Source: a candidate division WOR_3 bacterium SM23_42
GTDB taxonomy: Bacteria; Hydrothermota; Tepidihabitantia; SM23-42
Reading direction: 5' to 3'
Assembly (NCBI GenBank): GCA_001303785.1
Contig: LJUJ01000003.1
Coordinates: 14,027-78,026 of the forward strand
Length of the DNA: 64,000 nt
Of the stretch, positions 19,581 to 60,825 are shown piece by piece. The number at the start of each line of letters is the position of its first letter. Position 1 is the stretch's first letter. The notes beneath the pieces were generated by a model that was not told where the DNA came from, did no database searches, and saw only the letters and a list, made by a program, of their open reading frames with translations. A program made the translations under genes and the position numbers.

Positions 19581-19589
19581 AATACCTCC

Positions 19590-41839: not shown

Positions 41840-44800
41840 ATGAAAACTTGTCCAGTCTGCAATAATCAGAGCGTCCCCGGCTACGCAAATCATTGTCCGA
41901 ATTGCGGCGTAACACTCACGGCATACAAGAAGCAAACCGTAGAGGCCGAGCGCCTCCGGCTGTTGGGTGGTGAACTCAGACTGCTAACAGTATTCTTCGT
42001 GCAATTGATAGGCATCGAAAAGTTGATAAAAAGGGACACCGATGAAACGATAGAAAAACACATCCAGGATTTTCTGACCAACATCGAGAAGATCATTCAA
42101 GACTATGACGGAACGTCAAATCGTATCATTCCTGACTTCCGCATCCTGGGTATCTTTGGCGCCCCACATGCACACTATGACGACCCCTTGAGGGCAATAC
42201 GTTGTGCAAGCAATATCCAAGACTGGTGGCTAAAAAGCAAAAAGGAATCTAAGTTCCTCAGGAACGTCGATACGAGAATCGGAGTTAACACCGGCCGGGC
42301 ATTTTTCGGTTTCGTGCTTAAGGAATCACCATTCTTGACTGTCATTGGAGACACCATCAACACCGCGGCGCGCCTCACCGAAATAAGCCAGCAAAATGAG
42401 ATACTAATGACCAAGACCACGTACAACGCGGTGCTACGATATGCAGACGTCACACATATTGGCGAACAGGCGGTTAAAGGTAAAAAAACCAAAGTCGATA
42501 TCTACCGGCTCAGCAAAATCAGAACCACACCAAGAGTAACTGAGCCGCAGAGAATGCCGCTCTACGGCCGTGAGGCCGAATTGAAAAAATTGATTGCCCT
42601 TGCCGATAGGTTAGCCGACCATCGTGCAGTCTATTGCGCTATCAACGGGCAAATGGGCAGTGGGAAGAGCAGGCTTAAGGAGGAATTTGCATTTCATTTA
42701 AGCAGGAATGAAGCAATCAATCATTTTGAAACGAACTGCTCGGTCGATGTGCAATCACCATACTATCCTTTCAGGTCCTTACTCAGACGTTTTTTAGACC
42801 TGCACGAGTTCGACAGCCAGGATACCATGACCAAACGGATTCACGATGTGGTTGGTCAGAGAGAGCTTAGTCCACCCATCGCCAAGGGTATTAAGCACTT
42901 GCTCTTAACCGATATCGGCCGGTTGCGCAGCGAAGACATACGCGCGGTCAACGATGAAATCTACGCCTCGGTGCGCAATTTCATAAGGAGTGAATGTCGG
43001 CAAAAAGCTCTGGTACTGATCTTCGAGAATTTTGGCCAAGCCGATGTGATGTCCAAGGAGTTAATCACATATCTGATCTCCGAACTCGAAGACGAACCAA
43101 TAATGTTTCTGCTGATAAATGCGCCCGACAAGTTTCTCCAAACGGCCTCAATTCCCGTCGATAGAATTGACCTGAAACCTTTATCAAAGAAAGACATCTA
43201 TGCGCTGATTCGACATATGCTCACCAATGTTGATAAACATCTAGCCGACTTCATATATCGTGAAGCAGGCGGTAGTCCACTCTTCACAATCGAAGCCATC
43301 CGCAACACACGGCGCAATAAAATTATAAAAAAGGTCTCGGGAACGTGGTGTTTGGAAAAAGAACAGGTACTGGTTTTTCTCGATGACCTTTACGGATTAG
43401 TCATGTCGACGATCGATTCCCTTGCCTCTAACGCGCGTCTTATTATTGATTATGCCTCGGTCATCGGCTACCGTTTCAGCTTCCGCATATTGAAAGAGCT
43501 CCTTGCTTGGCCTGATTTGAAAGCACAGCTGGACTACCTGATTGCTGAGGGATATGTCGTACTGTCGTCAGACGGCGAAGATCCAGTATACATTTTCCGT
43601 CACAATCTACTCAAAGACGCCGCCTATCAAGTGCTCCCGGTTAGAAAACGAAAAGAAATACATCAAAAAGTGGCGTCTCTTTTCGAACAGGTATACCGCG
43701 ACACTTTGTCCACGTTTTACGAAGACGTCGCAAGGCATTATCAGGCCTCCGACCGACATGCGCGTGCTGCCGAGTATTTTAAGCTGGCCGGCGATAAGGC
43801 AAAGAACCTCTACGCGATTGATCAGGCATTGTCTTTTTATGAACAAGTTCTGAATACGAAGAACGAAATCGGGGATGAACTACCAAAAACCCTATACCAG
43901 GACGTCATGCTGAACTTGGTAGACATCTATGAAATCAAGGGTGACATCAAGAAGATGGAAAGAACGGCGCGGGAACGACTTGCTGATGCACGTCAGGACA
44001 AGGACCTAAAAAATGAGGTATTGTTTGCGGAACGTGACGCATATGCGCTCATACTACTTAACAAAACAGAAGAAGCGGAGCAACTATTAATATCCAGCAT
44101 AGACAGATGCGACGAGCAAATGGTAAGCATCCTAGCCATCTTGTATTCGGATTTAGGCATGCTCTATGCAAACAAATATGAATACGATAAGTGTCTCATA
44201 AACTACAATCTGAGTTGGAGAACGGCACACGCTAACAACATACGAGAAGCTGAGATAGTGTGCCTGTTCAATCTATCGAATCTGCACAAGAGCCTGGGCA
44301 ACTATGAACAGGCATTGGACTATCTGCAACATGGTTTGGAGATCCTTATCGATGCCGAGGATATCAGAAGGAACATCGAACTGCAATATCTGATTGCGAA
44401 CATCGACTATGAAATATGGAATATTGAAAAAGCCAAGGGACTGCTAGCAGAGTGCTTCATGACCGCGGATTCTATTGGCAGTTTTGACGCATACATAAAG
44501 TCCGCGTTGGATCTTGCTTTCATCCATTCACTCAACGGCGATGTACGGCAGGTAGAAAAATACCTGCAATCTGTCGATAAGAAGATATCATTCCTCATTC
44601 GTGAGAGCCTGCTTGCCGAAATCGACCTAAAAAAGGCACTGGTCTATTTCAACAATCAGGAATACAAGAAGGCACGTGATTACGTAGTGAACAGCATGAG
44701 AATTGCCGAAAAGTCATACCGCGCAGAGATCGTGTTCCAATGTCAAAGGTTATTGTCCCTGATCGACAAACAACATGACCTAGAACATGCCAAAAAGGCA

Positions 44801-45016
44801 CTCGAGCTAGCAGAACTAATGAAACTACCACCTTTGATCGCCGCCGCTCTGTATAGGGTCACCGAAATCTTTTCAGAGAAGGGTGATATTGAACGGGCAC
44901 GCTACTACGGAAGAAAAGCCTTGCTAGTCTATGATGACATAAAATCGCGACTCAATGATAAGAACCAGCAACATTATGTGAATCGACCTGAATATACGAG
45001 GCTGCTGGAGATTTAG
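41840..45016 (+). CDS. Multidomain signalling protein: N-terminal zinc ribbon + class-III nucleotide-cyclase homology domain (metal-binding Asp residues substituted) + STAND/AAA NTPase + TPR repeats
   Basis: CPVCNNQSVPGYANHCPNCG. Cyclase homology domain (CHD): TVFFVQLIGIE has Gln where the first metal Asp is expected, RILGIFGA has Ile where the second is expected, but RIGVNTGRAFFG and IGDTINTAARLTE retain the transition-state Asn/Arg. Walker A GQMGSGKSRL; long TPR-like C-terminal half. Confidence 0.8.
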   Translation: MKTCPVCNNQSVPGYANHCPNCGVTLTAYKKQTVEAERLRLLGGELRLLTVFFVQLIGIEKLIKRDTDETIEKHIQDFLTNIEKIIQDYDGTSNRIIPDFRILGIFGAPHAHYDDPLRAIRCASNIQDWWLKSKKESKFLRNVDTRIGVNTGRAFFGFVLKESPFLTVIGDTINTAARLTEISQQNEILMTKTTYNAVLRYADVTHIGEQAVKGKKTKVDIYRLSKIRTTPRVTEPQRMPLYGREAELKKLIALADRLADHRAVYCAINGQMGSGKSRLKEEFAFHLSRNEAINHFETNCSVDVQSPYYPFRSLLRRFLDLHEFDSQDTMTKRIHDVVGQRELSPPIAKGIKHLLLTDIGRLRSEDIRAVNDEIYASVRNFIRSECRQKALVLIFENFGQADVMSKELITYLISELEDEPIMFLLINAPDKFLQTASIPVDRIDLKPLSKKDIYALIRHMLTNVDKHLADFIYREAGGSPLFTIEAIRNTRRNKIIKKVSGTWCLEKEQVLVFLDDLYGLVMSTIDSLASNARLIIDYASVIGYRFSFRILKELLAWPDLKAQLDYLIAEGYVVLSSDGEDPVYIFRHNLLKDAAYQVLPVRKRKEIHQKVASLFEQVYRDTLSTFYEDVARHYQASDRHARAAEYFKLAGDKAKNLYAIDQALSFYEQVLNTKNEIGDELPKTLYQDVMLNLVDIYEIKGDIKKMERTARERLADARQDKDLKNEVLFAERDAYALILLNKTEEAEQLLISSIDRCDEQMVSILAILYSDLGMLYANKYEYDKCLINYNLSWRTAHANNIREAEIVCLFNLSNLHKSLGNYEQALDYLQHGLEILIDAEDIRRNIELQYLIANIDYEIWNIEKAKGLLAECFMTADSIGSFDAYIKSALDLAFIHSLNGDVRQVEKYLQSVDKKISFLIRESLLAEIDLKKALVYFNNQEYKKARDYVVNSMRIAEKSYRAEIVFQCQRLLSLIDKQHDLEHAKKALELAELMKLPPLIAAALYRVTEIFSEKGDIERARYYGRKALLVYDDIKSRLNDKNQQHYVNRPEYTRLLEI

Positions 45017-45017
45017 G

Positions 45018-45665
45018 ATGCTCTGCATGACCTGCAAGAAAGAAGTAAACCAACCGCTCAACTTCTGCCCATGGTGCGGCACCACGCTACGTGCCGAGAC
45101 TCCGTCACGTTTTGAGAACGTAAAGCTGACATTCCTGCGCGTCGATCTGTCCGGGTTCACTAAGATGAGTGAAGCCATGATCGCTGAAGATGTCATGGCA
45201 GTCCTGAACGAAATCTTTGGGGTCTTCGCAAAAATCGTAGAGTCTAACAAAGGAATAGTATATCAGCTTATCGGAGATGAGATAGTCAGTATTTTCGGAC
45301 TCAACATAGAATCGGGTTTTGCACCCCATATGGCGATTCTGACCGCGGATGAGATGTTCAGCAAGTTGCTCGATTTCAATAAGAAGGGAGGTTTCAAAAG
45401 CCCAATAGGACTCAAGGTTGGTGCCGAGATCGAATCAGCCTCGATATTCGATCTGCACTATGACCTAAAGAGTGCACTAATTCTAACCAAGGGCTTTAGG
45501 AAAAGCCAGATACTACAGAAAAACGCGGCCACTAATACGATCTTAGTTGGTGAAAATCTTCATAAAGTAACCAAAGGCTTCTTCGACTACCGCGAGGTCG
45601 GCGAATTCGTTGAGGAATCATTTGCAGTAAAAGCATATGAGTACAAACTAAAGTTGAAAGGCTAA
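45018..45665 (+). CDS. Small zinc-ribbon + nucleotide-cyclase homology domain protein (retains both metal-binding Asp, lacks transition-state Asn/Arg)
   Basis: CMTCKKEVNQPLNFCPWCG. FLRVDLSGFTKMSE has the canonical F.D..GFT with Asp; VYQLIGDEIVSIFG has the canonical IGD...FG with Asp. IGLKVGAEIES matches the IGIHTG-like region. Leu/Phe replace the Asn/Arg in the region aligned to GDTVNxAxR. Start overlaps the upstream stop by 1 nt. Confidence 0.6.
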   Translation: MLCMTCKKEVNQPLNFCPWCGTTLRAETPSRFENVKLTFLRVDLSGFTKMSEAMIAEDVMAVLNEIFGVFAKIVESNKGIVYQLIGDEIVSIFGLNIESGFAPHMAILTADEMFSKLLDFNKKGGFKSPIGLKVGAEIESASIFDLHYDLKSALILTKGFRKSQILQKNAATNTILVGENLHKVTKGFFDYREVGEFVEESFAVKAYEYKLKLKG

Positions 45666-47857
45666 TGGAAGAACATATATTAGACCTATACAATGATTTA
45701 CTTAAACTTCTAAGGATGGGTGTATACCTAGCAAGAACCTATCCTGACGGTCATCCTTCGCAGATGCGCACGGTGCAGCGGTTGCACAAGCTATTCAACG
45801 AACTCCGAATCGAAAAACGCGTTGTATCGATCGTCGTCATCGAGAATGTCTTAACGATTGAGAACGAGAGATTCGATTCACAGAAAATAAGCATCGTGAA
45901 ATATCTCGTGGATAGGTTTCATCAAATTGGCGTCAACAGTATCACCTTCAATACCGAAGTCTCGGAAAGCGACCTCAATGAATTCTTCTCTGTGATGTCG
46001 ATGCAACCCTCAGACATCGAAGACTTTGGCGATGTCGTTGCCGTGATGCGAATGCGGGACATTACCGGCGTAAAAGTTAATATCTACCGTGTAGGTGTTG
46101 TCTCCTCAGACGAGGACATGAGGGAATTGGATTGGGAGAACTTCCTCGAATCACTTATAACTGCGGAAACACCCAAGACAGAAGAAGAACGACTCAAGGA
46201 ATTAGGCAATTTCCTCGGCGTGCTTGGTGTTGACGGCAGCGACAGTACTGAAATTCAATCTAACAAAATAGTTGGCGGCCTCGAAAAACTCGCCCTCATG
46301 GTCGTGGACCGGTACGGCGAAGAACGATGGAATGAATACTCGTTAGTTTTTTCGAGAATCCTTGCCGTGCTATCACCCTCGGTCAAGAAGAATATCGTCC
46401 GGTACCGCACCGAGAATAAGAAACTTGCCGACCTATTCCGCAAGTTGGTGCCGACCATGGACGACGAGGACATCGTCGACATCGTCGTGACCATCGCCAA
46501 GAAGAAATCGCCCAGATCCGAAGATGACGTAGTGGACATCCTATCAAACGTCTCGAGCGTCAAGTTGCCAGATATCCTGACTACCTTAAGACAACGCGCT
46601 CCTGAATTCTACACACACAAGTTCGTGGACCGATTAATGGGTCAGGTGAAATCTAGGAAAGGTCCGGAAGCCGCGACCAAATTCGTGATTAGGAATCTTG
46701 AACTGGAGATGAAGAGCCAATTCCCCAAGCTGCGCAGCGCAAAAGCCGAGGAGCGAATAAAAGCAATCGAGGCTCTCATCAAATTCGCGGGTAAATTATT
46801 CGAGTCCAAGAATTACGACTTGGTTCGCCTCATGGCAAACCGACTGGATACAATGGCCGAGGCAGAATCTGACCTCAATGCCTTTGCCAAAGCCATCGAC
46901 GCCATGAAGATTCTCTACATCAAGGCACACGAAGATGAGGCCAGTGAGGTAATGGATTTCATTGCCAAGAAGTATGCAAAGTATTTGATGCGTAAAGACT
47001 CGATATTCCTCGAACGTAAGCGGTTCGTGATCAAGGCAATCGGTGAAACGAAGGATCCCACTTACATCCCTGAACTGATATCCTCACTGTGGGCAGCCGG
47101 CACTTACGCAGAAGCACGGGAAGCGTTGATTGCGCTTGCCGACCATTCCGCTCCCCTGTTGATTCAAACCCTCCGGGAGACCGAAGACTATTCGGTCAGA
47201 ATGAAAATCCTTGATATCTTGAAGAGGATGACGGATAGAGTTATACCCGAGGTAATCGGCTTGCTTAAGGCTGAAGAATGGTATGCGCGGCGTAATGGTG
47301 TGTTCATATTAGGCGAATTAAAGGCCGAATCGACGGTTGACGACATCGGGGCATTATTAAATGAAGATATCGAGCAGATACAGCTTGAGGTAGTGACGAG
47401 TTTAGGTAAAATCGGTGGTACCAGGTGTAAAGAATATATTCAGAAAGCACTCGGCAGCAAATACACCGACGTTACACTCGAGGCCATGAAGAACTTGGAC
47501 CCAGAAGATTTCAAAGAAAAAATCCCCGACGTCCTAGAATGGTTGAAGAGACAAAAGAGATTTCCGGATGAAGCAGAAGAACAGTTTAGATCCCGGGTCA
47601 TCGATGTTTTGGCCAAATGCAAATACGAATCGGTGATCAATGCACTTACTGCAGTGATCAAAGAACGCGCCTGGTTCAAGGGGAACTTACTTCAAGCGAC
47701 CAAGACGGCCGCCCTCAACGCACTTGCGCAAATCGGCACTCCAAAAGCAATGCAAGTCCTACAAAAAGCCGCCAACAACCGAAACCAGTTCATAGCCCTA
47801 ACCGCACAGGATGTGCTCCAGCGGGTTACAACCATACCTGAGGAAACCACGAGATAG
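45665..47857 (+). CDS. HEAT-repeat (PBS-lyase-like) protein with unrecognised N-terminal domain
   Basis: The C-terminal half holds multiple ~30-aa repeats of the form ...ARRNGVFILGELKAESTVDDIGALLNEDIEQIQLEVVTSLGKIGG..., typical of HEAT_2/PBS-lyase repeats. Start codon overlaps the previous stop (ATGG/TAATGG). Confidence 0.55.
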   Translation: MEEHILDLYNDLLKLLRMGVYLARTYPDGHPSQMRTVQRLHKLFNELRIEKRVVSIVVIENVLTIENERFDSQKISIVKYLVDRFHQIGVNSITFNTEVSESDLNEFFSVMSMQPSDIEDFGDVVAVMRMRDITGVKVNIYRVGVVSSDEDMRELDWENFLESLITAETPKTEEERLKELGNFLGVLGVDGSDSTEIQSNKIVGGLEKLALMVVDRYGEERWNEYSLVFSRILAVLSPSVKKNIVRYRTENKKLADLFRKLVPTMDDEDIVDIVVTIAKKKSPRSEDDVVDILSNVSSVKLPDILTTLRQRAPEFYTHKFVDRLMGQVKSRKGPEAATKFVIRNLELEMKSQFPKLRSAKAEERIKAIEALIKFAGKLFESKNYDLVRLMANRLDTMAEAESDLNAFAKAIDAMKILYIKAHEDEASEVMDFIAKKYAKYLMRKDSIFLERKRFVIKAIGETKDPTYIPELISSLWAAGTYAEAREALIALADHSAPLLIQTLRETEDYSVRMKILDILKRMTDRVIPEVIGLLKAEEWYARRNGVFILGELKAESTVDDIGALLNEDIEQIQLEVVTSLGKIGGTRCKEYIQKALGSKYTDVTLEAMKNLDPEDFKEKIPDVLEWLKRQKRFPDEAEEQFRSRVIDVLAKCKYESVINALTAVIKERAWFKGNLLQATKTAALNALAQIGTPKAMQVLQKAANNRNQFIALTAQDVLQRVTTIPEETTR

Positions 47858-47923: not shown

Positions 47924-47951
47924 TTGACACCTAGGTAATTTCCGTTATAAT
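47924..47951 (+). promoter_or_regulatory. Sigma70-type promoter (TTGACA-N16-TATAAT) ending 5 nt before the hsp20 ATG; predicts a leaderless transcript
   Basis: TTGACA at 47924-47929 and TATAAT at 47946-47951; ATG at 47957. Confidence 0.45.
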
Positions 47952-47956
47952 CAACT

Positions 47957-48385
47957 ATGAAACGCCCAGTCTCAGAAAAAGATCTAGAAACGCACATTGA
48001 ATTCATCATCGACGACAACATTGATTACGATGACAGTAACGTCTTCCCAGAATTCGCTAACTGGCAACCACTGTATAATCTATACACTACACCTGAAGGT
48101 ATAATGATTCACCTTGAACTAGCAGGAGTAGATACACGCGACATAGTTATCTATTTGCGCACCAGACATATGATTATCATGGGCAACCGCACAACACCCC
48201 CCGGATTGACCGGGGATTGCTGTGTTTTTCACAATCTAGAAATTCCATATGGCCGCTTCATCCGTCGAATCGACTTTCCAATCCCAATCGAGACACGACA
48301 ACATCAACACGAAATGCGCGACGGGCTTCTAACCATACATTTAAAGACATTAGAGGAAAAAATCATCCCCATCGAAGGTGAGTAG
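47957..48385 (+). CDS. Hsp20/alpha-crystallin family small heat-shock protein
   Basis: IHLELAGVDTRDIVIYLRTRHMIIMGNR...YGRFIRRIDFP...DGLLTIHLK matches the alpha-crystallin domain beta-strand pattern. Confidence 0.7.
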   Translation: MKRPVSEKDLETHIEFIIDDNIDYDDSNVFPEFANWQPLYNLYTTPEGIMIHLELAGVDTRDIVIYLRTRHMIIMGNRTTPPGLTGDCCVFHNLEIPYGRFIRRIDFPIPIETRQHQHEMRDGLLTIHLKTLEEKIIPIEGE

Positions 48386-48441: not shown

Positions 48442-50787
48442 ATGGTTGATACGCTAATCAAAATCCCTGAAGAGCTTGGCATCATTCCTATCAAAGGTGG
48501 TGTCATATTCCCGGACCAGGTGGTGCCACTCATAATTCACACACAGAAGCTGGCAAAACTCATCGATGAAATCCTGACCACTAATAAGCTAGCCGGCGCC
48601 CTAACCCAAAGAAATCCAGACATTGAAGAACCGAAGCCTCATGAGGTATTCGACATCGGTTGTGTCATTCAGATCACAAAAATGCTCCGCTTCCCCGATG
48701 GCACCATCAGATTACTCATTAAGGGCCTTAAGCGCTTCCGGGTCACGGAATTCACTCAAGATCAACCGTATCTAAAGGCGAAAATAAATATTGTAACAAC
48801 GAAATATAAGAAAACCGTTGCGCTCGAAGCCATGATGCGCAACGTCGTGACCATGTTTCAACATCTCGTATCGCTCGCCCCTTATTTACCTGACGAGTAC
48901 GCTGCTGTGATCCTAAACATGGAATCTGCGGATAACCTCATCGACTTTGTGACCAGCACGATTAACTTCGACTACCACGAGAAGCAAGCTCTCCTTGAAA
49001 CGACAGAACCAAAAGAGCGCTTTGCAAAACTCATTCCCATGCTACAAAAGGAAATCAGCATACTCGAACTCGGTGCCAAGATTCGCTCCGACGTGAAGAG
49101 CGAGTTGGATAAAGGTCAGCGTGAATTCTATCTGCGCGAACAACTGAAGGCAATTCAAAAGGAGTTGGGCGAGACCGACGAACACGCGCGCGAGATCGAT
49201 GAATTGAGAAAGAAAATCTTGGAAGCAAGAATGCCCAAGGAGACCAATAAGGTAGCCCTGAAAGAACTCGACCGTCTGGCCAAGATGCCCCCCCACGCCG
49301 CCGAATATACGGTATCGAGAACCTATATTGATTGGCTAATTTCTTTACCCTGGTCGCTTTCTACACAGGACAACATGAACATCAAGCGGGCCCAGAAGAT
49401 ACTTGATGAGGATCACTACGATCTGGAAAAAGTCAAGGAACGAATACTCGAATACCTCGCGGTGAAAAAATTGAAACCGGACTCGAAGGGGACAATACTC
49501 TGCTTCATCGGACCGCCCGGTGTGGGCAAGACATCGCTCGGCAAATCCATTGCCCGCGCCCTGGGACGTAAGTTTATCAGAATCTCTTTGGGCGGAATCA
49601 GAGATGAAGCGGAGATCAGAGGGCATCGCAGAACTTATGTGGGCGCCTTGCCCGGAAGAATTATCCAGTCGGTCAAAAATTGCGGTACAAATAATCCTGT
49701 ATTCATGCTTGACGAAATTGACAAAGTAGGCACCGACTTCCGCGGGGATCCCTCTTCGGCTCTTTTGGAAGTACTCGACCCCGAACAGAATAATGCCTTT
49801 TCCGACCACTATCTAGAAGTACCTTTTGACCTCTCACGTGTCATGTTTATCGCAACTGGGAATATTATTGACCCCATTATCCCAGCACTTAAAGATCGCA
49901 TGGAGATGATTGAACTACCTGGTTATATACTAGAAGAAAAACTTGAAATTGCGAAGAAATATTTGATTCCGCGCCAGATACAAGAAAATGGCCTTAAGTC
50001 CAAGAACATATTGTTCGATGATGCAGCTGTCAAGCGCATTATCAGTGCCTACACAAAAGAAGCAGGGGTACGGAATCTCGAACGTCTTATTGGCTCCATC
50101 TGCCGCAAGGTAGCAAAGCGAATCGCCGAAGGCAAGCGGGGTAAGGTTAAGTTAAGTGCGAAAAAACTAACTCAATTCCTTGGACCTCAGAAAATTGTGC
50201 CTGAGGTTGCGGCCCGTGATGGTCAAATCGGTGTCGCAACCGGGCTCGCCTGGACTCCCTACGGTGGTGAAATTTTGTTCATCGAAACGCTTAAAACGAG
50301 AGGCAAGAAGGGTTTGATTCTAACCGGCCTTTTAGGCGACGTCATGAAGGAATCGTGCCAGGCGGCGCTTTCGTACTTAAAGACAAGAATGCGTGGTTGG
50401 GGAATTGCCTTGAGCGATCTCGAAAATCAAGAATTGCACATTCATATTCCTTCCGGGGCTATCCCTAAAGATGGCCCCTCTGCGGGACTCGCCGTCGTCA
50501 TGTCACTGGCCTCGCTTATTCGGAACAAATCAATTGATTCCAAGATCGCCTTTTCGGGTGAAATCACTCTTGCCGGCCGGGTTCTTCCAGTCGGAGGCAT
50601 CAAGGAAAAGGTAATTGCCGCAAAAAGGGCAGGTATCGAGAAGATTATGTTGCCCAAGGAGAACGAAAAAGATTTGCAGGAAATTCCCAAGCACGTGCGT
50701 GCCGGCCTGTCGTTCATCTTCGCGTCGAGAATCGATCAAGCGTTGAATAATATCTTTCACAACAAAAAACATAAGGTCAAGAAATGA
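48442..50787 (+). CDS. lon: ATP-dependent Lon protease (LonA)
   Basis: Lon N-domain, Walker A GPPGVGKTS, sensor/arginine finger regions, and a C-terminal protease domain with PKDGPSAG (catalytic Ser) and a Lys dyad. Confidence 0.95.
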   Translation: MVDTLIKIPEELGIIPIKGGVIFPDQVVPLIIHTQKLAKLIDEILTTNKLAGALTQRNPDIEEPKPHEVFDIGCVIQITKMLRFPDGTIRLLIKGLKRFRVTEFTQDQPYLKAKINIVTTKYKKTVALEAMMRNVVTMFQHLVSLAPYLPDEYAAVILNMESADNLIDFVTSTINFDYHEKQALLETTEPKERFAKLIPMLQKEISILELGAKIRSDVKSELDKGQREFYLREQLKAIQKELGETDEHAREIDELRKKILEARMPKETNKVALKELDRLAKMPPHAAEYTVSRTYIDWLISLPWSLSTQDNMNIKRAQKILDEDHYDLEKVKERILEYLAVKKLKPDSKGTILCFIGPPGVGKTSLGKSIARALGRKFIRISLGGIRDEAEIRGHRRTYVGALPGRIIQSVKNCGTNNPVFMLDEIDKVGTDFRGDPSSALLEVLDPEQNNAFSDHYLEVPFDLSRVMFIATGNIIDPIIPALKDRMEMIELPGYILEEKLEIAKKYLIPRQIQENGLKSKNILFDDAAVKRIISAYTKEAGVRNLERLIGSICRKVAKRIAEGKRGKVKLSAKKLTQFLGPQKIVPEVAARDGQIGVATGLAWTPYGGEILFIETLKTRGKKGLILTGLLGDVMKESCQAALSYLKTRMRGWGIALSDLENQELHIHIPSGAIPKDGPSAGLAVVMSLASLIRNKSIDSKIAFSGEITLAGRVLPVGGIKEKVIAAKRAGIEKIMLPKENEKDLQEIPKHVRAGLSFIFASRIDQALNNIFHNKKHKVKK

Positions 50788-51827
50788 TATTGCTTCTTTT
50801 TTTTCAGATAGAGTACCAGGTCATTAATAGAATACACGGCGATTCAGCACAAGAATTGGCGCTATACTACAAAATGCCTTCAAGAAGTCTTCAGTATTAT
50901 GCAAAAGACACATCTTTTCAGGGTGAATACGAGATCCAGGTAATAATATTCGACAAACACGATAACCAATTAACCGGAGATTACTGGCGCAAAACCGCAA
51001 CTGAGGATACCGTTGACATACAAGATTCGATCAAACTCTACATACCAAGCAACAGCGACTACTATGCTTTCAAAATCATCGATTTGCATGCTGGCGTAAT
51101 ATTTACAGCCACAGAGAAACTCATACAGGCAAGAAATTTGGGGAACGTATTCTGGGCGATTTCAAACGACAGGCTCAAATTATCATTTACGATCCTCAAT
51201 CGGCAAGGCGTTATAGACAGTACCGTTGCAACAATCGGTAATCTGAAACAAGCAAAAGCGGTAAGAAAAGGTTCGTATAATGACTCCATAATTTTTGACG
51301 TCGCCGGCTTATCCATCGATGAGCATCAGTTAAAACTCGAGTTGTACTCGGAGCAGGGCAAAATCGATGAATTAGTCATTCCAATCAAGGTTTCACGTCC
51401 GTTCTACCTAGACGAAGAAATGTGGTCCTTGAGGGTCGATCAGCTGCAGTATATAGCGACCCCACGGGAGATGGATAGGCTGAATAAGACCCTTGAACCG
51501 GAAAGGGATTCATTGTGGCGCGAATTCTGGAGTAAATTCGATCCGACACCAAACACCAGGTACAACGAAAGAGAAGCCGAGTATTTTGAACGCATAGCTT
51601 ATGCGGAAAAAAACTTCTCAAATGGAGATCTGGGCTGGCGCAGTGACCGAGCGAGAATCTTTGTGAAGAATGGACCTCCTGATGAGATTCAGCGTTATCC
51701 GTACGAAATAGATTCTTACCCTTACGTGATCTGGTATTACTATCAAAACAATCTGCGCTTCTTGTTTGTGGACCGTTATGGCTTCGGTCAGTACATACTC
51801 GCGAGTCCGGATGTTTTAGGCTTATGA
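50784..51827 (+). CDS. GWxTD-domain protein
   Basis: C-terminal ...SLWREFWSKFDPTPNT...NEREAEYFERIAYAEKNF...GDLGWRSDRARIFVKNGPPDEIQRYPY...YVIWYY...LRFLFVD... fits the GWxTD-domain core. Start ATG overlaps the lon stop (ATGA). The N-terminal ~230 aa is unassigned. Confidence 0.6.
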   Translation: MILLLFFQIEYQVINRIHGDSAQELALYYKMPSRSLQYYAKDTSFQGEYEIQVIIFDKHDNQLTGDYWRKTATEDTVDIQDSIKLYIPSNSDYYAFKIIDLHAGVIFTATEKLIQARNLGNVFWAISNDRLKLSFTILNRQGVIDSTVATIGNLKQAKAVRKGSYNDSIIFDVAGLSIDEHQLKLELYSEQGKIDELVIPIKVSRPFYLDEEMWSLRVDQLQYIATPREMDRLNKTLEPERDSLWREFWSKFDPTPNTRYNEREAEYFERIAYAEKNFSNGDLGWRSDRARIFVKNGPPDEIQRYPYEIDSYPYVIWYYYQNNLRFLFVDRYGFGQYILASPDVLGL

Positions 51828-53107
51828 TCATTTCAATCTGTCTGCTCATCGCCACCAGCGGAATAGAATTTCACACTGACCCTGTCGTGTATAGAACGAC
51901 ACTTGAGATAGAAGACACAATAAGCCATACCATAGAAACTGGAGAAATATTCTATGCCGAGTTCAACTGTGAAATCCCTTACAATGAGTTGGACTACGAA
52001 TCTGCCGAAGACATAATCTTTGCAAATGTAATCATACCATTCAAAATACGCGACCTCACCCGTCCCGATTCACTTATCGATACATTGTATCGCCAATTTA
52101 CACTTCCCTCGTTCTCTTATGCGGCAAAGCAACGCGTGTCGTTCATCGTTCAGTTTGGTACTTATCTGACCGAAGGTAGATTCAATTATTCCATCGAGAT
52201 ACTATCGGGCGACAAAAGAGGAATCAGCGAGGCGGTTCTTGAGATAACCGATGAAGATTATGGCATGAGTGATATACTGCTCTCCAGCGAGATAACTATC
52301 GATACCGCAGGCACCTACTTGAAGAAAGGTAACCTGAGAGTGATACCGCGTCCCTCACATTCATTCGACGAACGATTCGAGAATCTCTGTTTCTACTACG
52401 AATTGTATGACGTAGTTCCAACCTACGATACGGTAACTGCAACGTACCTAATCCTCAGTAGAGAGGGCAAGATAGTCCGGAAAATCTCAAGACCGATAGA
52501 CAAAGTCTTCCCATCACAAGCAGCCAACTGCGGATTCAATGTGCTGGGCCTCGAACCCGGTGAATACGACTTGCTTATTTCAATAGAAGATGATGAATCG
52601 AATGTCATAGTGCAGAAAGAAACTAGATTCAATATTTCCCGGGCTCAACGTAAGGAAGTGAGCTACGAGGGTATGCCCTACTACGATGAAATAGAATATC
52701 TTGTGGGTCCCCATGCTTACGACGAATTCAAACATCTTCCAGAAGAGGGCAAGAAGAGGTTCCTGGATAAATTCTGGCAAAAATATGATTATTATGAAAT
52801 CGCCGAGCGGTTTGAATACGCAGACGAGCATTACCGCTACGGTGGAAAACCAGGTAGCAAGACAGATCGGGGACGTATCTACATTAAGCGTGGCGACCCC
52901 GATGAAATAGATAGACCACAACCCTTGCAATTGCAGGAGAGCAGGCCATATGAACACTGGCAGTACCTTAATGGTGATGATTACATCTTCGTGGACATTG
53001 CCGGCACGAACAACTACGTCCTGGTCTGGACAAATGATCTTGACGAGCAGTCTCAACCTACTCTTTACAAGTATCTGCCACCCGAAAAACTCGACATTGT
53101 CCATTAA
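51824..53107 (+). CDS. GWxTD-domain protein (second, paralogous C-terminal domain)
   Basis: N-terminal signal-like MIISICLLIATSG. C-terminal ...KRFLDKFWQKYDYYE...EHYRYGGKPGSKTDRGRIYIKRGDPDEIDR...YEHWQY...YIFVD. ATGA overlap with the upstream gene. Confidence 0.6.
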   Translation: MIISICLLIATSGIEFHTDPVVYRTTLEIEDTISHTIETGEIFYAEFNCEIPYNELDYESAEDIIFANVIIPFKIRDLTRPDSLIDTLYRQFTLPSFSYAAKQRVSFIVQFGTYLTEGRFNYSIEILSGDKRGISEAVLEITDEDYGMSDILLSSEITIDTAGTYLKKGNLRVIPRPSHSFDERFENLCFYYELYDVVPTYDTVTATYLILSREGKIVRKISRPIDKVFPSQAANCGFNVLGLEPGEYDLLISIEDDESNVIVQKETRFNISRAQRKEVSYEGMPYYDEIEYLVGPHAYDEFKHLPEEGKKRFLDKFWQKYDYYEIAERFEYADEHYRYGGKPGSKTDRGRIYIKRGDPDEIDRPQPLQLQESRPYEHWQYLNGDDYIFVDIAGTNNYVLVWTNDLDEQSQPTLYKYLPPEKLDIVH

Positions 53108-53154: not shown

Positions 53155-53823
53155 ATGGCAACGAAGGATCTGGAAACAAAAATATCCGAAAAAATCCAAA
53201 AAGATATCACAGAAAAAGTAGCACAGCATTTACAGACTTTGAATCAAAATTTGAAATCTTATTTTATCGAGAATAAGGAAATCTGTGGCAAATTATTTGA
53301 AGAAATCAAATCGTTAAGGGAACTATTAGAACATTCGAAGATCGTTAAGAAAGAAACTATTGCAATCTTCGTTGACTCCCAAAACCTTTATTACTCGGCA
53401 CGCATGGGCTATGCCGCCAAGGTCAACTATGAAAAACTACTTCGCCTTGTTACCGGAAAGCGTAATCTCATAAAAGCATATGCCTATATTGTCCAGCCCC
53501 CTGAAGGTGATGTCAAACCGTTCGCCACGAGCCTTGAGCGTATCGGCTATATTGTGAAGACAAAAGATGTCAGGACTCGTGCCAATGGATCAGCCAAGGC
53601 AAACTGGGATATGGGAATCGCACTGGACATTCTCGGCATCATCGACCGAGTCGACACCATCGTCTTAGCCTCAGGCGACGGAGATTTTGTGCCCCTTGTT
53701 GATTTCATAAAGGGCACGGGTAAGCGCGTTGAGATATTCGCCTTTCCCGACAACACGGCGTACGACCTGAAGGAGAAAGCGGACCGTTTTGAACCGTTAG
53801 GAGAAAACGTCATCCTCACGTGA
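53155..53823 (+). CDS. NYN-domain (LabA/DUF88-like, PIN-fold) protein with N-terminal coiled-coil
   Basis: IAIFVDSQNLYY...KAYAY...DMGIALDILGIID.VDTIVLASGDGDFVPLVDFIKGTGKRVEIFAF is the NYN/LabA pattern with conserved acidic residues. GGAGG RBS upstream. Confidence 0.7.
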   Translation: MATKDLETKISEKIQKDITEKVAQHLQTLNQNLKSYFIENKEICGKLFEEIKSLRELLEHSKIVKKETIAIFVDSQNLYYSARMGYAAKVNYEKLLRLVTGKRNLIKAYAYIVQPPEGDVKPFATSLERIGYIVKTKDVRTRANGSAKANWDMGIALDILGIIDRVDTIVLASGDGDFVPLVDFIKGTGKRVEIFAFPDNTAYDLKEKADRFEPLGENVILT

Positions 53824-54723: not shown

Positions 54724-54845
54724 GATTTTTACGAAATTCACCACGTCGACACACAAGTACCGACAATGCGATTTTTCCTTGAAAAATGGGCGTTTTTGGC
54801 AATTCGCCTTATTGACTGAGGCCGATTTTTGGGTATAATTCTGTA

Positions 54846-57266
54846 ATGGACCAAAGAATAACAACCGTCTACATTGAAGATGAAATAAAGTCTTCTTATC
54901 TCGACTACGCGATGAGTGTCATCGTGGGTCGCGCGCTGCCCGACGCACGTGATGGTCTCAAACCCGTGCAGCGCCGCATCCTCTATGCAATGTCCGAAGC
55001 TGGTTTACTGTCGAATCGTCCCTATAAGAAAGCTGCTACGGTGATCGGCGACGTTCTCGGAAAGTATCATCCGCACGGTGACATGGCCATCTACGATGCG
55101 CTTGTCCGCATGGCTCAGGATTTTTCTATGCGTTACGCGCTGGTCGATGGGCAAGGCAACTTCGGGTCTATTGATGGAGATGCACCTGCAGCCTATCGCT
55201 ACACCGAAGCCCGACTCACTTCTTTGGCCGAAGATATCCTTAAGGATCTAGGCAGAGATACTGTTGATTTTGTACCCAATTTTGATGGACGGCTGAAAGA
55301 ACCGGTAGTGCTACCCGCTAATACTCCTAATCTACTCTGCAATGGAGCATCGGGGATCGCGGTCGGCATGGCAACGAATATACCACCCCACAATCTCAGC
55401 GAAGTAACAAACGCACTGATCGCCATTATCAAAAATCCGAAAATCAAGGACGACGCCCTACTACAACTCATTCCTGGCCCAGACTTTCCAACCGGTGCAA
55501 TCATTATCGGACGAGCCGGTATAGATCAAGCATACAGGACTGGTAAGGGAAGAATAATCATCAGAGGCAAGGCGCGCATAGAAGACATGAAGGGCGGCAA
55601 GCAAGCGATCGTCATCACCGAGATTCCGTATCAGGTAAACAAGAGTTCTTTGCTCGAAAAAATCGCAAATCTGGCGCGTCAGAAGAAAGTGGAAGGTATC
55701 TCTGACCTCAGAGATGAATCTGATAAGGATGGCATAAGGATTGTCGTGGAGCTGAGGAGGGATGCGAATCCTCAAATCGTGCTAAACAATCTATATAAAT
55801 ATACGAGTCTGCAGGTGCCGTACGGCATTCAAATCTTAGCCTTGGTGTCGGATACGCCGAAGACCCTATCGCTGCGCGAAGCCTTACAGCAATTCGTCGA
55901 TTTCAGATTCGAAGTCGTGTCTCGAAGGACCAAATTCGAGCTGGCCGAAGCCGAGAAGCGAGCGCATATCCTTGAAGGTTTGAAAATAGCAATTGAAAAT
56001 ATCGACGAGGTAGTCAAAATAATAAAAAAATCGCAGGATACCAAAGTAGCAAAGCAGAGGCTAATGAAGCGTTTCTCCCTTAGTGAGGTACAAGCACAAG
56101 CGATTCTCGATATGCGCCTGGCAAGACTTACTAATCTCGAAAAAGAAAGCCTAGAAAAAGAGTATCTTGGGTTGATCAAAGAAATCGCTCGTTTGAAGTC
56201 AATACTTCGGTCGCCCAAAGGAGTATATCAAGTAATCGAGCAAGAATTGAAAACACAAGAAGAGCGCTATCGGGACCCACGAAGAACGATCATAGTTGAC
56301 GCTGAGCCGGAAGAACTCACGATTGAAGACTTGATTGGCGAAGAGGATATGGTCATCAGCCTAACTCAGCGTGGTTACATAAAGAGACAGCCTATTACTA
56401 CCTACCGGAATCAGACCCGGGGCGGTCATGGCCGGAAGATCCATGAAGTCCGGGGTGAAGATGTAGCATACCAATTACTAATTTCGAAGACGACGGATAC
56501 GTTGCTCTTTTTCTCAGATAAGGGAAAAGTATATGCGTGCAAGGTCTATGAGATACCTGAATCAGGGCCGCTCTCCAAGGGACGCTCGATTGCCAATTTG
56601 GTTCAACTCGCTGCGAATGAACGAGTTACCGCCTGCCTGGCCATCAAGGATTTCTCATCCAAGCACTACATATTCATGGCAACGAAAATGGGGAAAGTAA
56701 AGAAAACCGACCTCGTTGATTACGAAAATACGCGGAAGAAGGGCATTATCGCGATCAATCTTGCCAAAAACGATCGACTCATCGCGGCTCGACTCACCAC
56801 GGGCAAGGATTCTGTGCTCCTCACGACAAAGGATGGATTGAGTCTACGTTTCAGCGAAAAACAGATCAGACCCATGGGAAGAAATGCTGGTGGAGTGAGA
56901 GGCATACGGCTCGCCAAGGGCAACGAAGTCGTCGGCTTCAACGTCGCGCGTGCTGATGAGGACATGCTTGTCGTCGGCGAGCGAGGTAGGGGGAAAAGGG
57001 TCAAGTTCGAGGCGATTGGAGAAAAGGGGCGCGCTGGTAAAGGCATGAAGGCGATGACAATTGATGCCAAGACTGGCAAGATTGCCGGCGTGGCGAGTGT
57101 TAATGATGATGACGACCTCATCGTCATGACTAAAATCGGCAAGGTCATAAGAACACCGGTGAATGAAATCAAGGTTTTGAGCCGTCAGGCCAAAGGAGTC
57201 AAGATAATTGCCCTGGCCAAAGATGACAGCGTCGTCGCGATTGCCCCGGTCAAGGCGCAGGTATGA
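54846..57266 (+). CDS. gyrA: DNA gyrase subunit A
   Basis: [30 protein letters not shown], active-site AAMRYTE-equivalent ([10 protein letters not shown]), a C-terminal beta-pinwheel repeat region and the GyrA box QRRGGRG-like ([10 protein letters not shown]). Confidence 0.95.
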
Positions 57267-57852: not shown

Positions 57853-60825
57853 CTATCGTGCCACCATCAAGGATTTTGTTTCAATATATTGGCCAGCCAT
57901 AAAACGATAGAAGTACACTCCATTGGCTAGTCTTCTGCCGGCAATATCATCGACATCGATACTTATCCCGTAATAACCATATGACAGATTTTCATCCATC
58001 AACACAGCTATTTCTTGGCCGGTGACATCATAGAGCCTGATTTCTACCCTGCACGGTTCTGGGATTGCGTATTTTATCAACGTTCTACTCGAAGATGGAT
58101 TCGGGCAGTTCTGCTGAATAGAAAAGACGGTCGGCCGACCGGCTGATTGATTCTCTTCTATTGCCAACGGCGGGATTGTGAAGTCTCCGTCACTTTCGTC
58201 ATAATTGGCAGAAAATGCTAGGTAAGTAACCTTCACCCTGCCTTCGGTCGTCGGTGTGTTTGGTACGGACCAGGTATGAATACCGTCGTCCGGGGTATCG
58301 GAATCGATTATCAGCCAGCTCGATCCACCGTTGGTAGAATATTCGACAGCAACGTTGCCGTCGATGCCTGCCGGCGCCCAAGTGATATCGTGACTCTCTC
58401 CGATATGCCAGGTTTCACCACCATTGGGTGCGGTCACGACAATCTGACTGCAGACAGTGAAGTCAGCGTCACTCTGGTCAAAGACCGCAGGATCACTAAT
58501 ACTAGTAATCTTGACCTGATAATCAGTGCCCGGCAGTTGTCCCGCGGGTATGTTCCAACTGTACGACCCACTGTTAGCCGTGCTGCTCACTATCGTGCTG
58601 TTAAAAACGCCGCCCTTGTAGAGTTCGATCTTCACATCGCCACTCACTCCGCTACTCATCCAGGTAATTTCGTAAGAATTTCCGCGTATCCAACCCTCAC
58701 CACCATTCGGCGATGTGACGGTGATGCCGTATTCTGTAATTGCGAAGTCACCATCACTCTCATCATAATTGGCAGCGCAAGTCAAATGAGTTGCCTTGAC
58801 CCTACCTTGAGTTGTCGGTGTAGCGGGTATGGTCCACGGGTAACTACCGTTATCTAATGTGTCCGAGGTCACCGTATTCCAGGTCGACCCAGCATCGGTC
58901 GAGTACTCTATCGAAACGTTGCCGCCGATGCCTGCCGGCGCCCAGGTGATATCATAGGTCTCACCGATATGCCAGGTTTCACCACCATTGGGTGCGGTTA
59001 CGATGATCTGACTACAAATGGTAAAATCTGCGTCACTATGGTCAAAGACTGCAGGATCATTAATACTAATTATTTTAACCTGATAGTCAGTGCCCGGTAG
59101 TTGCCCCGCAGGTATTACCCAATTGTACGACCCACTATTAGCTGTGCTGCTTACTATCGTGCTGTTAAAAACACCACCCTTGTAGAGTTCAATCTTCACG
59201 TCGCCGCTCACCCCGTTACTCGTCCAGGTAATATCGTAGGCATTCCCCCGTATCCAGCATTCACCGCCATTCGGCACGGTCACTATAATATAATCACCGA
59301 TATTGTAAGAAATACTCATTTCATACAGACACGGCAACAAGGCAGGATTAGTATAGATTAGCGATGTCATATACTGAATGTATTGAGAATTCAATGAATC
59401 TGGCACCGGTTCACCGTTACCTAACATGCACCAATCCGACCAGGTCGGGTCATAAGAAGGCGTATTACCAGTTCTAACACAGCACTCAATTGATGCCCCA
59501 GATGGCAGACTATCATCCCACTCAACCGTACCCCAGTCGCTGGTCTGTCCAGCATCGAACACCGAAGAGATATATGGTTCGTTGTAGTTGCGATCATAGA
59601 CATTACCGATCTCACGAAACATGCCGTGATGATCATTGTTCACTGGTAATTCCGTGTAAGTCGTGAATTCACTTCCCCAAAACACATAGCTGTGTGAACC
59701 GGGTGTAATCGCGTTGCTGAAGATATCTAAGTCACCATCATTATCGAAATCAGCGACTAGCCCTCCACTAGCTTCGATTGGAATACCGATATACGATATA
59801 CTAGTATCATGATAACCGGCAGCACTGCCCCAGTATATTTCCTGCTGGTGCTTTCCATACCCTCCACGGTGAAAGACGATATCCAAGTAGCCATCTTTGT
59901 TAATATCCGCTGCAGCACTTCCTCCGTAACAATAACCTGGATTCAGCACCTGCATATTTGAACCGGAGTAGCCAGTTGAATCACCCCAATATATGTGTGC
60001 CGCCGGATCATACCAATAAGTATACACAATATCGAGGAAGGCGTCGCAGTTCAGGTCGGCCACAGTGACACCATGTGAACCCCAAATAGCCGGGAAGGAA
60101 GTGAAGTTCGTCGGTGAAAATCCCGTACTCGCTCCCCAATATATTCGGTAGGTTTCAGTTGGCCACGTTGCGGCCACGAATAGTACGTCGAGCCAATTAT
60201 CCTTGTTGAAATCCGCCACTTCAATGTTATGCTGACCCATTTCCACAGGTAGGTCGATGCGATTGCTGAAGTTGAAACCAGACGCGCTTCCCCAAAAGAC
60301 AGATCCGTATCCCGGCAAGGTTACATCCATGGCGATATCCAGGTAGCCATCCTTATTGAAGTCGGCTACAAAGCAGGCCTCACCTTCTGCCTGTAGAAGC
60401 ATTATATCTGAATAACCATAAGGACCGGGGCCCGTGGGGCTACCCCAGTACACCGTGAGCTTCGGAGTGTACTTATGAGTCACAATGAAATCAGCGTAGC
60501 CATCATTATCGACATCAGCGGCATCGCAATTACCGGAACCACTACTTGGAAATTGGGTCAAGCTGCCAGGTGAATAGCCACTCGCACTGCCCCAGTATAA
60601 TTTTACGTATGGACCATGACGATCCGCGGTAAATAAGTCGATATAACCGTCGTTGTTCAGGTCGAATCTGGGCGCGAATTCTACGGCGCCTCCGTCAAGA
60701 TGTGAGGCGTAGATATTTCTTTCGAAAATACCATCTGCGAAATCTTCTTGAGTGGTCTCGGTCCAAAGGCTTGCGTGGGCCATGCACACAATAAGTATTG
60801 AACACACGAATGGCCTCACAATCAT
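57853..60825 (-). CDS. Large secreted protein: FG-GAP-like repeats + 4 tandem Ig-like (Kre9/KNH-like, PNGGExW) domains + T9SS-type C-terminal sorting domain
   Basis: Signal peptide; about 7 repeats of the D.N.DGY.D. calcium-binding FG-GAP type with YWG motifs. Four domains begin (I/V)TAPNGGE(T/G)W...ITW. The C-terminus LANGVYFYRF...ETKSLMVAR resembles T9SS C-terminal domains. Confidence 0.7.
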   Translation of the reverse strand: MIVRPFVCSILIVCMAHASLWTETTQEDFADGIFERNIYASHLDGGAVEFAPRFDLNNDGYIDLFTADRHGPYVKLYWGSASGYSPGSLTQFPSSGSGNCDAADVDNDGYADFIVTHKYTPKLTVYWGSPTGPGPYGYSDIMLLQAEGEACFVADFNKDGYLDIAMDVTLPGYGSVFWGSASGFNFSNRIDLPVEMGQHNIEVADFNKDNWLDVLFVAATWPTETYRIYWGASTGFSPTNFTSFPAIWGSHGVTVADLNCDAFLDIVYTYWYDPAAHIYWGDSTGYSGSNMQVLNPGYCYGGSAAADINKDGYLDIVFHRGGYGKHQQEIYWGSAAGYHDTSISYIGIPIEASGGLVADFDNDGDLDIFSNAITPGSHSYVFWGSEFTTYTELPVNNDHHGMFREIGNVYDRNYNEPYISSVFDAGQTSDWGTVEWDDSLPSGASIECCVRTGNTPSYDPTWSDWCMLGNGEPVPDSLNSQYIQYMTSLIYTNPALLPCLYEMSISYNIGDYIIVTVPNGGECWIRGNAYDITWTSNGVSGDVKIELYKGGVFNSTIVSSTANSGSYNWVIPAGQLPGTDYQVKIISINDPAVFDHSDADFTICSQIIVTAPNGGETWHIGETYDITWAPAGIGGNVSIEYSTDAGSTWNTVTSDTLDNGSYPWTIPATPTTQGRVKATHLTCAANYDESDGDFAITEYGITVTSPNGGEGWIRGNSYEITWMSSGVSGDVKIELYKGGVFNSTIVSSTANSGSYSWNIPAGQLPGTDYQVKITSISDPAVFDQSDADFTVCSQIVVTAPNGGETWHIGESHDITWAPAGIDGNVAVEYSTNGGSSWLIIDSDTPDDGIHTWSVPNTPTTEGRVKVTYLAFSANYDESDGDFTIPPLAIEENQSAGRPTVFSIQQNCPNPSSSRTLIKYAIPEPCRVEIRLYDVTGQEIAVLMDENLSYGYYGISIDVDDIAGRRLANGVYFYRFMAGQYIETKSLMVAR
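58174..59292. repeat. Intragenic tandem duplication (2 x ~565 bp) encoding two pairs of alternating Ig-like domains
   Basis: Near-identical DNA blocks, e.g. ...gatatgccaggtttcaccaccattgggtgcggt(c/t)acga... at ~58420 and ~58965. Protein residues 512-699 versus 700-884 are >85% identical. Confidence 0.6.

Follow-up and report, generated by a model that had tools for sequence, protein, structure and literature searches.

A GWxTD-domain protein pair found in many phyla and placed behind lon in one clade of WOR-3 bacteria

Known adaptors and modulators of the Lon protease include SmiA of Bacillus subtilis, HspQ of enterobacteria, LarA of Caulobacter and PinA of phage T4, which are small cytoplasmic proteins not known to carry a signal peptide, a GWxTD domain or a beta-sandwich domain. 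In this study, we analyzed a stretch of 64,000 nucleotides (nt) from candidate division WOR_3 bacterium SM23_42 (assembly GCA_001303785.1, contig LJUJ01000003.1, positions 14,027 to 78,026 of the forward strand), here called the window, in which lon is followed by two genes for GWxTD-domain proteins, termed A and B below. A first-pass annotation of the window had suggested that the two proteins are adaptors, regulators or envelope-associated partners of Lon. Of this suggestion, the envelope association fits our results, whereas the role of adaptor, regulator or partner is unsupported, since the A-B pair is kept without lon in other genomes, the family is extracytoplasmic elsewhere and its neighbors there are envelope genes. 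The likeness of A and B to known Lon adaptors is limited to genetic proximity to lon, and the GWxTD family differs from those adaptors in being otherwise extracytoplasmic and in having its link to lon in one clade only. A and B are two new proteins of an already known family that has no assigned function (TIGR04514 in NCBIfam, PF20094 in Pfam), and a literature search returned zero papers on GWxTD proteins or on the Lon protease in WOR-3, the phylum now named Caldifarciminota by NCBI.

On balance, we consider it probable that A and B are exported paralogues that act together, likely as a heterodimer formed via their GWxTD domains, that they bind a component of the cell envelope and that they ride on the hsp20-lon transcript. 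The genes and protein regions on which this reading turns are the following.

48442..50787, + strand: lon (LonA, ATP-dependent protease La), 781 amino acids (aa); TIGR00763 934.5 bits (cut-off 608)
50784..50787, + strand: ATGA stop/start overlap of lon and A, read in the sequence
50784..51827, + strand: GWxTD-A, the canonical pair member (GWRSD, DPTPNTxYNE), 347 aa; TIGR04514 99.4 bits, PF20094 44.2 bits
50811..51392, + strand: A, two predicted beta-sandwich (Ig/FnIII-like) domains, residues 10-112 and 119-203
51438..51743, + strand: A, GWxTD domain core, residues 219-320, TIGR04514 match
51824..51827, + strand: ATGA stop/start overlap of A and B, read in the sequence
51824..53107, + strand: GWxTD-B, the divergent paralogue (GSKTD, DPxPxTxxNE deleted, ~20 extra C-terminal residues), 427 aa
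51872..52636, + strand: B, two predicted beta-sandwich domains, residues 17-141 and 152-271
52682..52966, + strand: B, GWxTD domain core, residues 287-381, TIGR04514 match

Both ATGA overlaps lie exactly where the first-pass annotation had placed them. A stop codon is present three codons 5' of the ATG of A in the same frame, so that the overlapping ATG is the only possible start of A. The upstream gene encodes a canonical LonA, recognized by the equivalog hidden Markov model and by all four Pfam domains (LON_substr_bdg 149.6, AAA 89.6, Lon_lid 80.5 and Lon_C 260 bits), and its product has no membrane segment or signal peptide. The G+C content is 42.9% in A, 44.7% in B and 47.5% in lon, no anomaly of composition was noted, and an Rfam scan of the window for regulatory RNA returned one tRNA only.

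Membership of both proteins in the GWxTD family, proposed earlier from the sequence with a TIGRFAM and Pfam search as its check, was borne out. Both exceeded the TIGR04514 cut-off of 28 bits (A 99.4 bits, B 62.4 bits), whereas at the PF20094 gathering threshold of 26.9 bits A passed and B fell just short, with 22.0 bits as a whole protein and 25.0 bits as a C-terminal fragment. The core motif quoted for the pair in the first-pass annotation is present in parts, but as a string it is a composite of A and B. In A the motif reads GWRSDRARIFVKNGPPDEI, accompanied by FWSKFDP and NEREAEYFERIAYA; the name-giving motif is thus present as GWRSDRA, with S in place of the T of GWxTD, together with FWSKFDPTPNTRYNE. 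The invariant residues of this domain in A include W245, W249, D253, N261, E262, R270, G284, D288 and R289. In B the motif reads GSKTDRGRIYIKRGDPDEI, in which the W is lost (GSKTDRG) and the DPTPNTxYNE stretch is missing, and DPxPxTxxNE is likewise absent from the B-type proteins of other WOR-3. The B-types of other phyla retain both DPxPxTxxNE and the W of GWxTD, whereas those of WOR-3 have lost both. The loss of DPxPxTxxNE corresponds to a 10-residue deletion (window 52790-52830, B residues ~318-335), as seen by comparison with loci L060-L074.

Database searches returned 144 relatives per protein at E <= 1e-3, which their sources name GWxTD domain-containing proteins of candidate division WOR-3, and the closest of them share the lengths of the query (347-361 aa for A and 411-431 aa for B). 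An exhaustive HMMER search with the C-terminal domain of A identified 6,687 representative clusters (50% identity, E <= 1e-3), most of whose representatives are 350-460 aa long and carry the domain at the C-terminus. A and B share with the family the C-terminal domain, the size (~350-460 aa) and the overall architecture. They differ from it in the divergence of B (below the Pfam cut-off, GSKTD, DPxPxTxxNE deleted), in signal-like N-termini that are unusually short and in the place behind lon, which is specific to one WOR-3 clade.

The N-terminal parts of A and B had been described as unrecognizable and different from each other. They indeed have no match in a Pfam scan and their raw identity is 17%, but comparison of orthologue alignments indicates that they are homologous. 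With hhalign, the alignments of A and B matched over nearly the whole length (probability 99.9, E = 2.7e-34), and the N-terminal parts alone, with the C-terminal domains removed, still matched colinearly (probability 93.9, E = 1.6e-7). The first N-terminal domain of A paired with the first of B and the second with the second, whereas cross pairs were unmatched. AlphaFold2 models (confidence, pLDDT, 74.9 for A and 82.7 for B) comprise two beta-sandwiches in each protein, after which a helical bundle and a small sheet carry the GWxTD motifs; helices span residues 296-356 and strands residues 376-403 in the model of B, and confidence is low at residues 277-297 in that of A. An alignment across phyla indicates that the family has in common both its layout throughout and an N-terminal motif, ExxYxIPxxxLxF, and A-type and B-type proteins form distinct orthogroups, the B-types having a C-terminal extension of ~20 residues. 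These comparisons indicate that A and B are full-length paralogues of the same three-part architecture and that their duplication is ancient.

The best matches of the beta-sandwiches of A are FnIII and GH2 Ig-like domains. Neither A nor B matches Wzt_C (PF14524, cut-off 30.4 bits), the C-terminal carbohydrate-binding domain of Wzt, and their likeness to this and other glycan-binding beta-sandwiches is at the level of a common fold only. A BamE/SmpA-like reading of the G-x-PD...W-Y...F-F-D part was also considered and rejected: Pfam searches with the C-terminal fragments at E <= 10 returned only GWxTD_dom, and the models do not have that topology.

To place the locus in context, one genome per species was scanned, giving 80 loci that were annotated by tblastn with the proteins of the window. 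In 37 of the 80 species genomes lon lies directly 5' of A, and all 37 belong to one WOR-3/Stahlbacteria clade (labeled WOR-3, Stahlbacteria, TA06-DG_78 or close relatives). The linkage is therefore not unique to the source genome. Uniqueness was one of the two outcomes that, according to the first-pass annotation, would speak against its proposal, and the other, a domain search that fails to support GWxTD, did not occur either. Nearly all of these species have the full block hsp20-lon-A-B-NYN-PHP, usually followed by gyrA, and the block was also found in further metagenome contigs. The junction of lon and A is an overlap of 4 nt (-4) in 27 of the 37 species and ranges from -1 to +17 nt in the others, while that of A and B is -4 in 32 of the 34 Lon-linked loci with B on the contig. 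Overlaps at both junctions are thus conserved beyond chance. Two loci of this set are irregular: in L041 (7956-9011) a canonical start codon is absent from A around the place where the N-terminus should lie, and L011 (8001-8936) has an A truncated at its N-terminus and lacks both lon and NYN. Either case could stem from faulty assembly or from a local breakdown of the gene order.

The co-occurrence of GWxTD pairs with lon, raised as a check in the first-pass annotation, nonetheless holds for one clade only. Linkage to lon wherever GWxTD occurs was not found. The A-B tandem is present without lon in 31 of the 80 genomes, which are spread over no fewer than seven phylum-level groups (other WOR-3, Zixibacteria, Gemmatimonadota, Cloacimonadota, TA06, Ignavibacteria and Acidobacteriota), and a single GWxTD gene without lon in a further 12. 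The Lon-less A/B junctions are -4, -11 or 0 nt, with -4 in seven Lon-less loci of other phyla. Among 80 metagenome loci lon is absent from 79, the exception (L153) being the same contig as the genome locus L041. Because the tandem is kept without lon in 31 genomes, the conserved ancient unit is the coupled A-B pair and not lon-A-B, and the pair became attached to lon later, in a single clade. Among the members of that clade, Lon (65-88% identity, mostly 72-88%) and GyrA (75-93%) are far better conserved than A (35-67%) and B (32-69%). The order of NYN, PHP and gyrA is as strongly conserved there as that of lon-A-B, and since those genes are unrelated, conserved order is weak evidence for a specific functional tie.

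The remaining features of the block are listed below.

47924..47951, + strand: consensus sigma-70-type promoter TTGACA-N16-TATAAT, 12/12 match
47957..48385, + strand: hsp20 (small heat-shock protein), first gene of the block; Pfam HSP20 26.7 bits (cut-off 20.8)
53155..53823, + strand: NYN-domain protein, next gene of the block after a 47-nt gap behind B; Pfam NYN 119.7 bits
53887..54723, + strand: PHP-domain protein of the histidinol-phosphatase family, last before the gyrA promoter; PHP 83.3 bits, TIGR01856 148.9 bits

The -10 hexamer of the promoter ends 5 nt before the ATG of hsp20, and a 12/12 promoter at an equal distance from the start codon was found in 27 of the 33 Lon-linked loci for which the region was available (window 47924-47957; L002, L005-L007 and L012-L043). 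An alignment of 29 such regions revealed no conserved operator near the promoter: apart from the promoter itself, with a T-run in its spacer, only the start codon was conserved, and the flanks were not. The promoter is probably the start of the transcription unit, and its conserved spacing to the ATG implies an hsp20 mRNA that is probably leaderless. The gap between hsp20 and lon is 6-160 nt. From lon to the end of B, the window has zero credible terminators or strong promoters, and the next strong promoter on the + strand is an 11/12 match at 54812-54839, before gyrA. At this gyrA promoter (window 54812-54846) the ATG again follows 6 nt after the -10 hexamer, and leaderless transcripts may be common in the source organism. 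The simplest reading of these features is co-transcription of hsp20-lon-A-B, perhaps also with NYN and PHP, and translation of A and B by coupling. The co-expression with lon that the overlaps had suggested in the first-pass annotation is therefore likely, given the conserved overlaps, the shared conserved promoter and the failure to find an internal terminator or promoter.

Several lines of evidence indicate that GWxTD domains work outside the cytoplasm. Relatives in other phyla begin with classical signal peptides, such as MKTKITFYVLAICILFLLNKNINAQ. In addition, four of the top 150 family representatives (P0370, P0445, P0474 and P0491) are BlaR1 proteins with a Peptidase_M56 domain that carry two GWxTD domains after the last hydrophobic helix. 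In BlaR1, the region after the last membrane helix is an extracellular sensor, and the GWxTD domains in that position thus work outside the cytoplasm, and again as a pair. In locus L165 (3621-6346), one such gene has a BlaI/Penicillinase_R repressor gene just 5' with a 4-nt overlap. We know of no description of a GWxTD-type class of BlaR1 sensors, and none was found in the literature searched. A and B resemble these members of the BlaR1/MecR1-type transducers in that two GWxTD domains occur together, in tandem there and as a pair of proteins here, but they have beta-sandwiches instead of the M56 protease and membrane helices and no BlaI gene nearby, and are not themselves BlaR1-type signal transducers.

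In the source organism, B begins with MIISICLLIATSG, followed by IEF, which is a short (13 residues), uncharged and signal-peptide-like segment with the design and length of the N-terminus of B in Lon-less WOR-3. It resembles that of a PBP4-type D-Ala-D-Ala carboxypeptidase encoded elsewhere in the window (2791-4164, - strand; Peptidase_S13 324 bits; N-terminus MASMILLLFLSLS), which has ~12 uncharged hydrophobic residues before a catalytic domain whose Pfam match starts at residue 12. Enzymes of this family are periplasmic in characterized bacteria, and to judge from these N-termini, very short signal peptides seem to be in use in the source organism. That the organism has an outer membrane follows from other products of the window, namely a TolC-like OEP, an HlyD-type adaptor, an AcrB-type pump and a protein with a type IX secretion system (T9SS) C-terminal sorting domain. 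On the reading we favor, both A and B would be exported in the source organism.

De novo clustering of the genes beside GWxTD genes in the 80 genome loci and the 80 metagenome loci, with annotation of cluster representatives, showed that the recurrent theme of the neighborhoods is the outer membrane and lipopolysaccharide (LPS). In 18 loci, a series of OEP, HlyD, ABC ATPase and two MacB permease genes lies directly 5' of A-B on the same strand with short gaps; six are named genomes (Zixibacteria, TA06, Krumholzibacteriia, Ignavibacteria and Acidobacteriota) and 12 are metagenome loci. In Ignavibacteria, a single-copy GWxTD gene occurs in the order Rce1-like, zinc-ribbon, CdsA, RimO, GWxTD, hexose kinase, BamA-like Omp85, UbiA and RNase HII, a cluster present in 21-29 loci, with RimO upstream in 29 and Omp85 downstream in 23 (L126 4519-13552 and ~29 similar metagenome loci). 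This gene order recalls the cdsA...bamA...rnhB envelope cluster of proteobacteria. In the Bacteroidota locus L084 (3-10598), a B-like single GWxTD gene has on one side the gene for a PorV/PorQ-family outer-membrane protein (168 bits) and on the other that for a lipid A lauroyl acyltransferase, behind which lies a GT9 heptosyltransferase gene; genes for a TonB-dependent-receptor-like barrel and for a 1182-aa protein without a family match precede the PorV/PorQ-family gene. The acyltransferase gene follows GWxTD in four loci of Bacteroidota/Ignavibacteria type. The genes behind the pair in Lon-less WOR-3 encode PSP1, ThiC and an aminotransferase. Among the neighbor clusters of the 80 genome and 80 metagenome loci, no proteolysis genes were found beside GWxTD outside the Lon-linked clade.

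Taken together, these results suggest how the pair might work. A and B would be made in fixed proportion through translational coupling and would act as a periplasmic or outer-membrane-associated heterodimer, in which the paired GWxTD domains, possibly helped by the beta-sandwiches, may bind an envelope component; as the ligand, whose nature we infer, LPS or another glycolipid or glycan would be the leading candidate. In one clade of WOR-3, the pair would have been placed behind hsp20-lon and be transcribed from the conserved leaderless consensus promoter, with A translated by re-initiation at the stop codon of lon. The relation to Lon would then be one of co-expression and not of physical or functional partnership.

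A number of observations weigh against this reading. The hydrophobic N-terminus of A consists of only MILLLFF (residues 1-7), with a median of 7 residues across 48 family members, and it lacks both a c-region and small residues at -1/-3, whereas A proteins in Lon-less WOR-3 have a hydrophobic segment of 14-17 residues with VxG|D at its end. Sec export of A in the Lon-linked clade is therefore doubtful as judged from this N-terminus, the 7-residue stub being neither a convincing signal peptide nor absent. The heterodimer is inferred from gene order only, and none of the top 150 representatives is a natural A-B fusion, the long proteins with two GWxTD domains being the BlaR1 M56 fusions. Searches of the PDB with GWxTD proteins, by single sequence and by profile, yielded nothing significant from which a binding site could be deduced, and the similarities of the beta-sandwiches are generic for a very common fold. 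The neighborhoods in other phyla concern paralogous GWxTD subfamilies and may not transfer to the A-B pair. Finally, the retention of the lon/A overlap in 27 of 37 species possibly reflects selection beyond shared transcription.

The last of these points and the short N-terminus of A also count in favor of a partnership with Lon. In such a scenario, A and perhaps B would be cytoplasmic in the Lon-linked clade and would serve Lon as adaptor, regulator, inhibitor or dedicated substrate, MILLLFF would have ceased to be a signal peptide and would be a Lon-binding or degron-like tag, and the overlap would ensure about one A per Lon. Lon recognizes exposed hydrophobic and aromatic stretches, as degron work has established. 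The block also reaches a branch in which A is only 35% identical. Moreover, the clade in which the start of A is fused to the lon stop is exactly the one in which the hydrophobic N-terminus of A has been cut to about seven residues, and even so this segment stays strictly hydrophobic. It is mainly for this trimming that we leave a small probability to the Lon-partner explanation, which we otherwise regard as unlikely: the pair occurs without lon in genomes of many phyla, relatives with signal peptides and the BlaR1-type fusions place GWxTD domains outside the cytoplasm, the signal-like N-terminus of B is as long as those in Lon-less WOR-3 and in the PBP4-type enzyme of the organism itself, GWxTD genes of other lineages are not linked to a proteolysis-related gene, and the equally conserved order of NYN, PHP and gyrA points to general synteny among fairly close relatives. 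The most extreme form of the idea, in which an A whose signal peptide was trimmed to a 7-residue stub has been re-deployed as a cytoplasmic Lon-bound factor, is also the most extreme version of the broader two-subunit proposal given below. A role in anti-phage defense or a mobile module, composed of a Lon-like protease, an NYN nuclease and proteins of unknown function, was raised by weak domain-level PADLOC matches of Lon to BrxL (48 bits) and of NYN to a LabA-like NYN (54.7 bits). It is very improbable, and we excluded it because A and B have no PADLOC match and the block keeps its place beside gyrA and other housekeeping genes across 37 species; in addition, lon is a full LonA equivalog and the composition of the genes is unremarkable.

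Two further explanations concern what an envelope-located pair would do. As a more specific variant of the reading we favor, A and B could be periplasmic accessories or cargo of a MacB-type ABC/HlyD/TolC machine, or of outer-membrane or LPS assembly, that were relocated in WOR-3. The transporter genes immediately 5' of A-B in the 18 loci described above suggest this, as do the lipid A acyltransferase, heptosyltransferase, PorV/PorQ-family, CdsA and Omp85 genes that adjoin GWxTD elsewhere, and in Zixibacteria, Acidobacteriota and others the arrangement in which A-B follows a MacB-type ATPase, two permeases, HlyD and a TolC-like protein is reminiscent of FtsEX-EnvC, LolCDE-LolA and MacAB-TolC. 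However, A and B are related to EnvC or LolA neither in sequence nor in fold, a MacB-type transporter adjoins A-B in zero WOR-3 loci, the only efflux system of the window, which is of the CusCBA-like RND kind, lies 30 kb from the pair, the association consists of gene adjacency alone, and several of the contexts are mixed housekeeping clusters with RimO, RNase HII, ThiC and PSP1. The analogy to periplasmic partners of MacB-family systems is thus a functional speculation, and this variant is a tentative possibility. The GWxTD domain could instead be an enzyme, for example a hydrolase or transferase acting on an envelope polymer, with A active and B a degenerate, non-catalytic partner. A-types of different phyla do have many invariant polar residues (D, N, E, R, S/T, D and R in FWxxxDPTPxTxxNE...R...GWRSDRG), and the loss of DPxPxTxxNE and of the W of GW from the WOR-3 B-type is a pattern typical of active/inactive pairs of paralogues. 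We nevertheless think catalysis quite unlikely, as similarity to enzyme families is absent by sequence, profile and fold, the B-types of other phyla retain the motif, and the use in BlaR1-type sensors fits binding better.

Other genes of the window were noted in the course of the analysis. Just 5' of hsp20 (41840-47857, + strand), genes for a 1058-aa adenylate/guanylate cyclase-AAA_16-TPR protein, a 215-aa protein with zinc-ribbon and cyclase domains and a 730-aa HEAT-repeat protein follow one another with near-zero gaps, an order matched in the closest relatives (L001, L005-L010). In Lon-less WOR-3 a small HEAT protein is encoded just before A, and a relationship of the HEAT-repeat gene of the window to it was considered and rejected, as tblastn found zero similarity between them. 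Two adjacent paralogous FG-GAP repeat proteins (57853-60825 and 60952-63069, both - strand) have nearly identical N-termini, and only the second (60952-63069) has a type IX secretion C-terminal domain. The CusCBA-like RND efflux system is encoded at 15035-20801 (- strand), and its membrane-fusion protein has HMBD and YHS metal-binding domains.

Our analyses indicate that the arrangement behind lon is a clade-specific operon layout and not a new kind of system, and that it does not reveal a new partner of Lon. It also carries a warning for annotation, in that a stop/start overlap with a well-known gene may mislead on function when the linkage is limited to one clade. For the family, the implications are wider, given its 6,687 clusters and its conserved positions beside outer-membrane, LPS and efflux genes in many little-studied phyla. 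As a more speculative proposal, to which we attach a modest probability, the GWxTD A/B proteins may constitute a widespread, hitherto unrecognized two-subunit periplasmic module of FCB-related phyla and Acidobacteriota that binds or monitors an envelope glycolipid (LPS-like), whose paired domains also serve in BlaR1-type sensors and which was wired into a leaderless hsp20-lon heat-shock operon in one WOR-3 clade. If true, that wiring would tie envelope maintenance to cytoplasmic protein quality control. The results provide a first coherent description of the GWxTD family, comprising a fixed three-part architecture, an ancient coupled A/B pairing, extracytoplasmic, sensor-like use of the BlaR1 type and envelope neighborhoods, and this description yields testable hypotheses and starting places in tractable Bacteroidota or Ignavibacteria.

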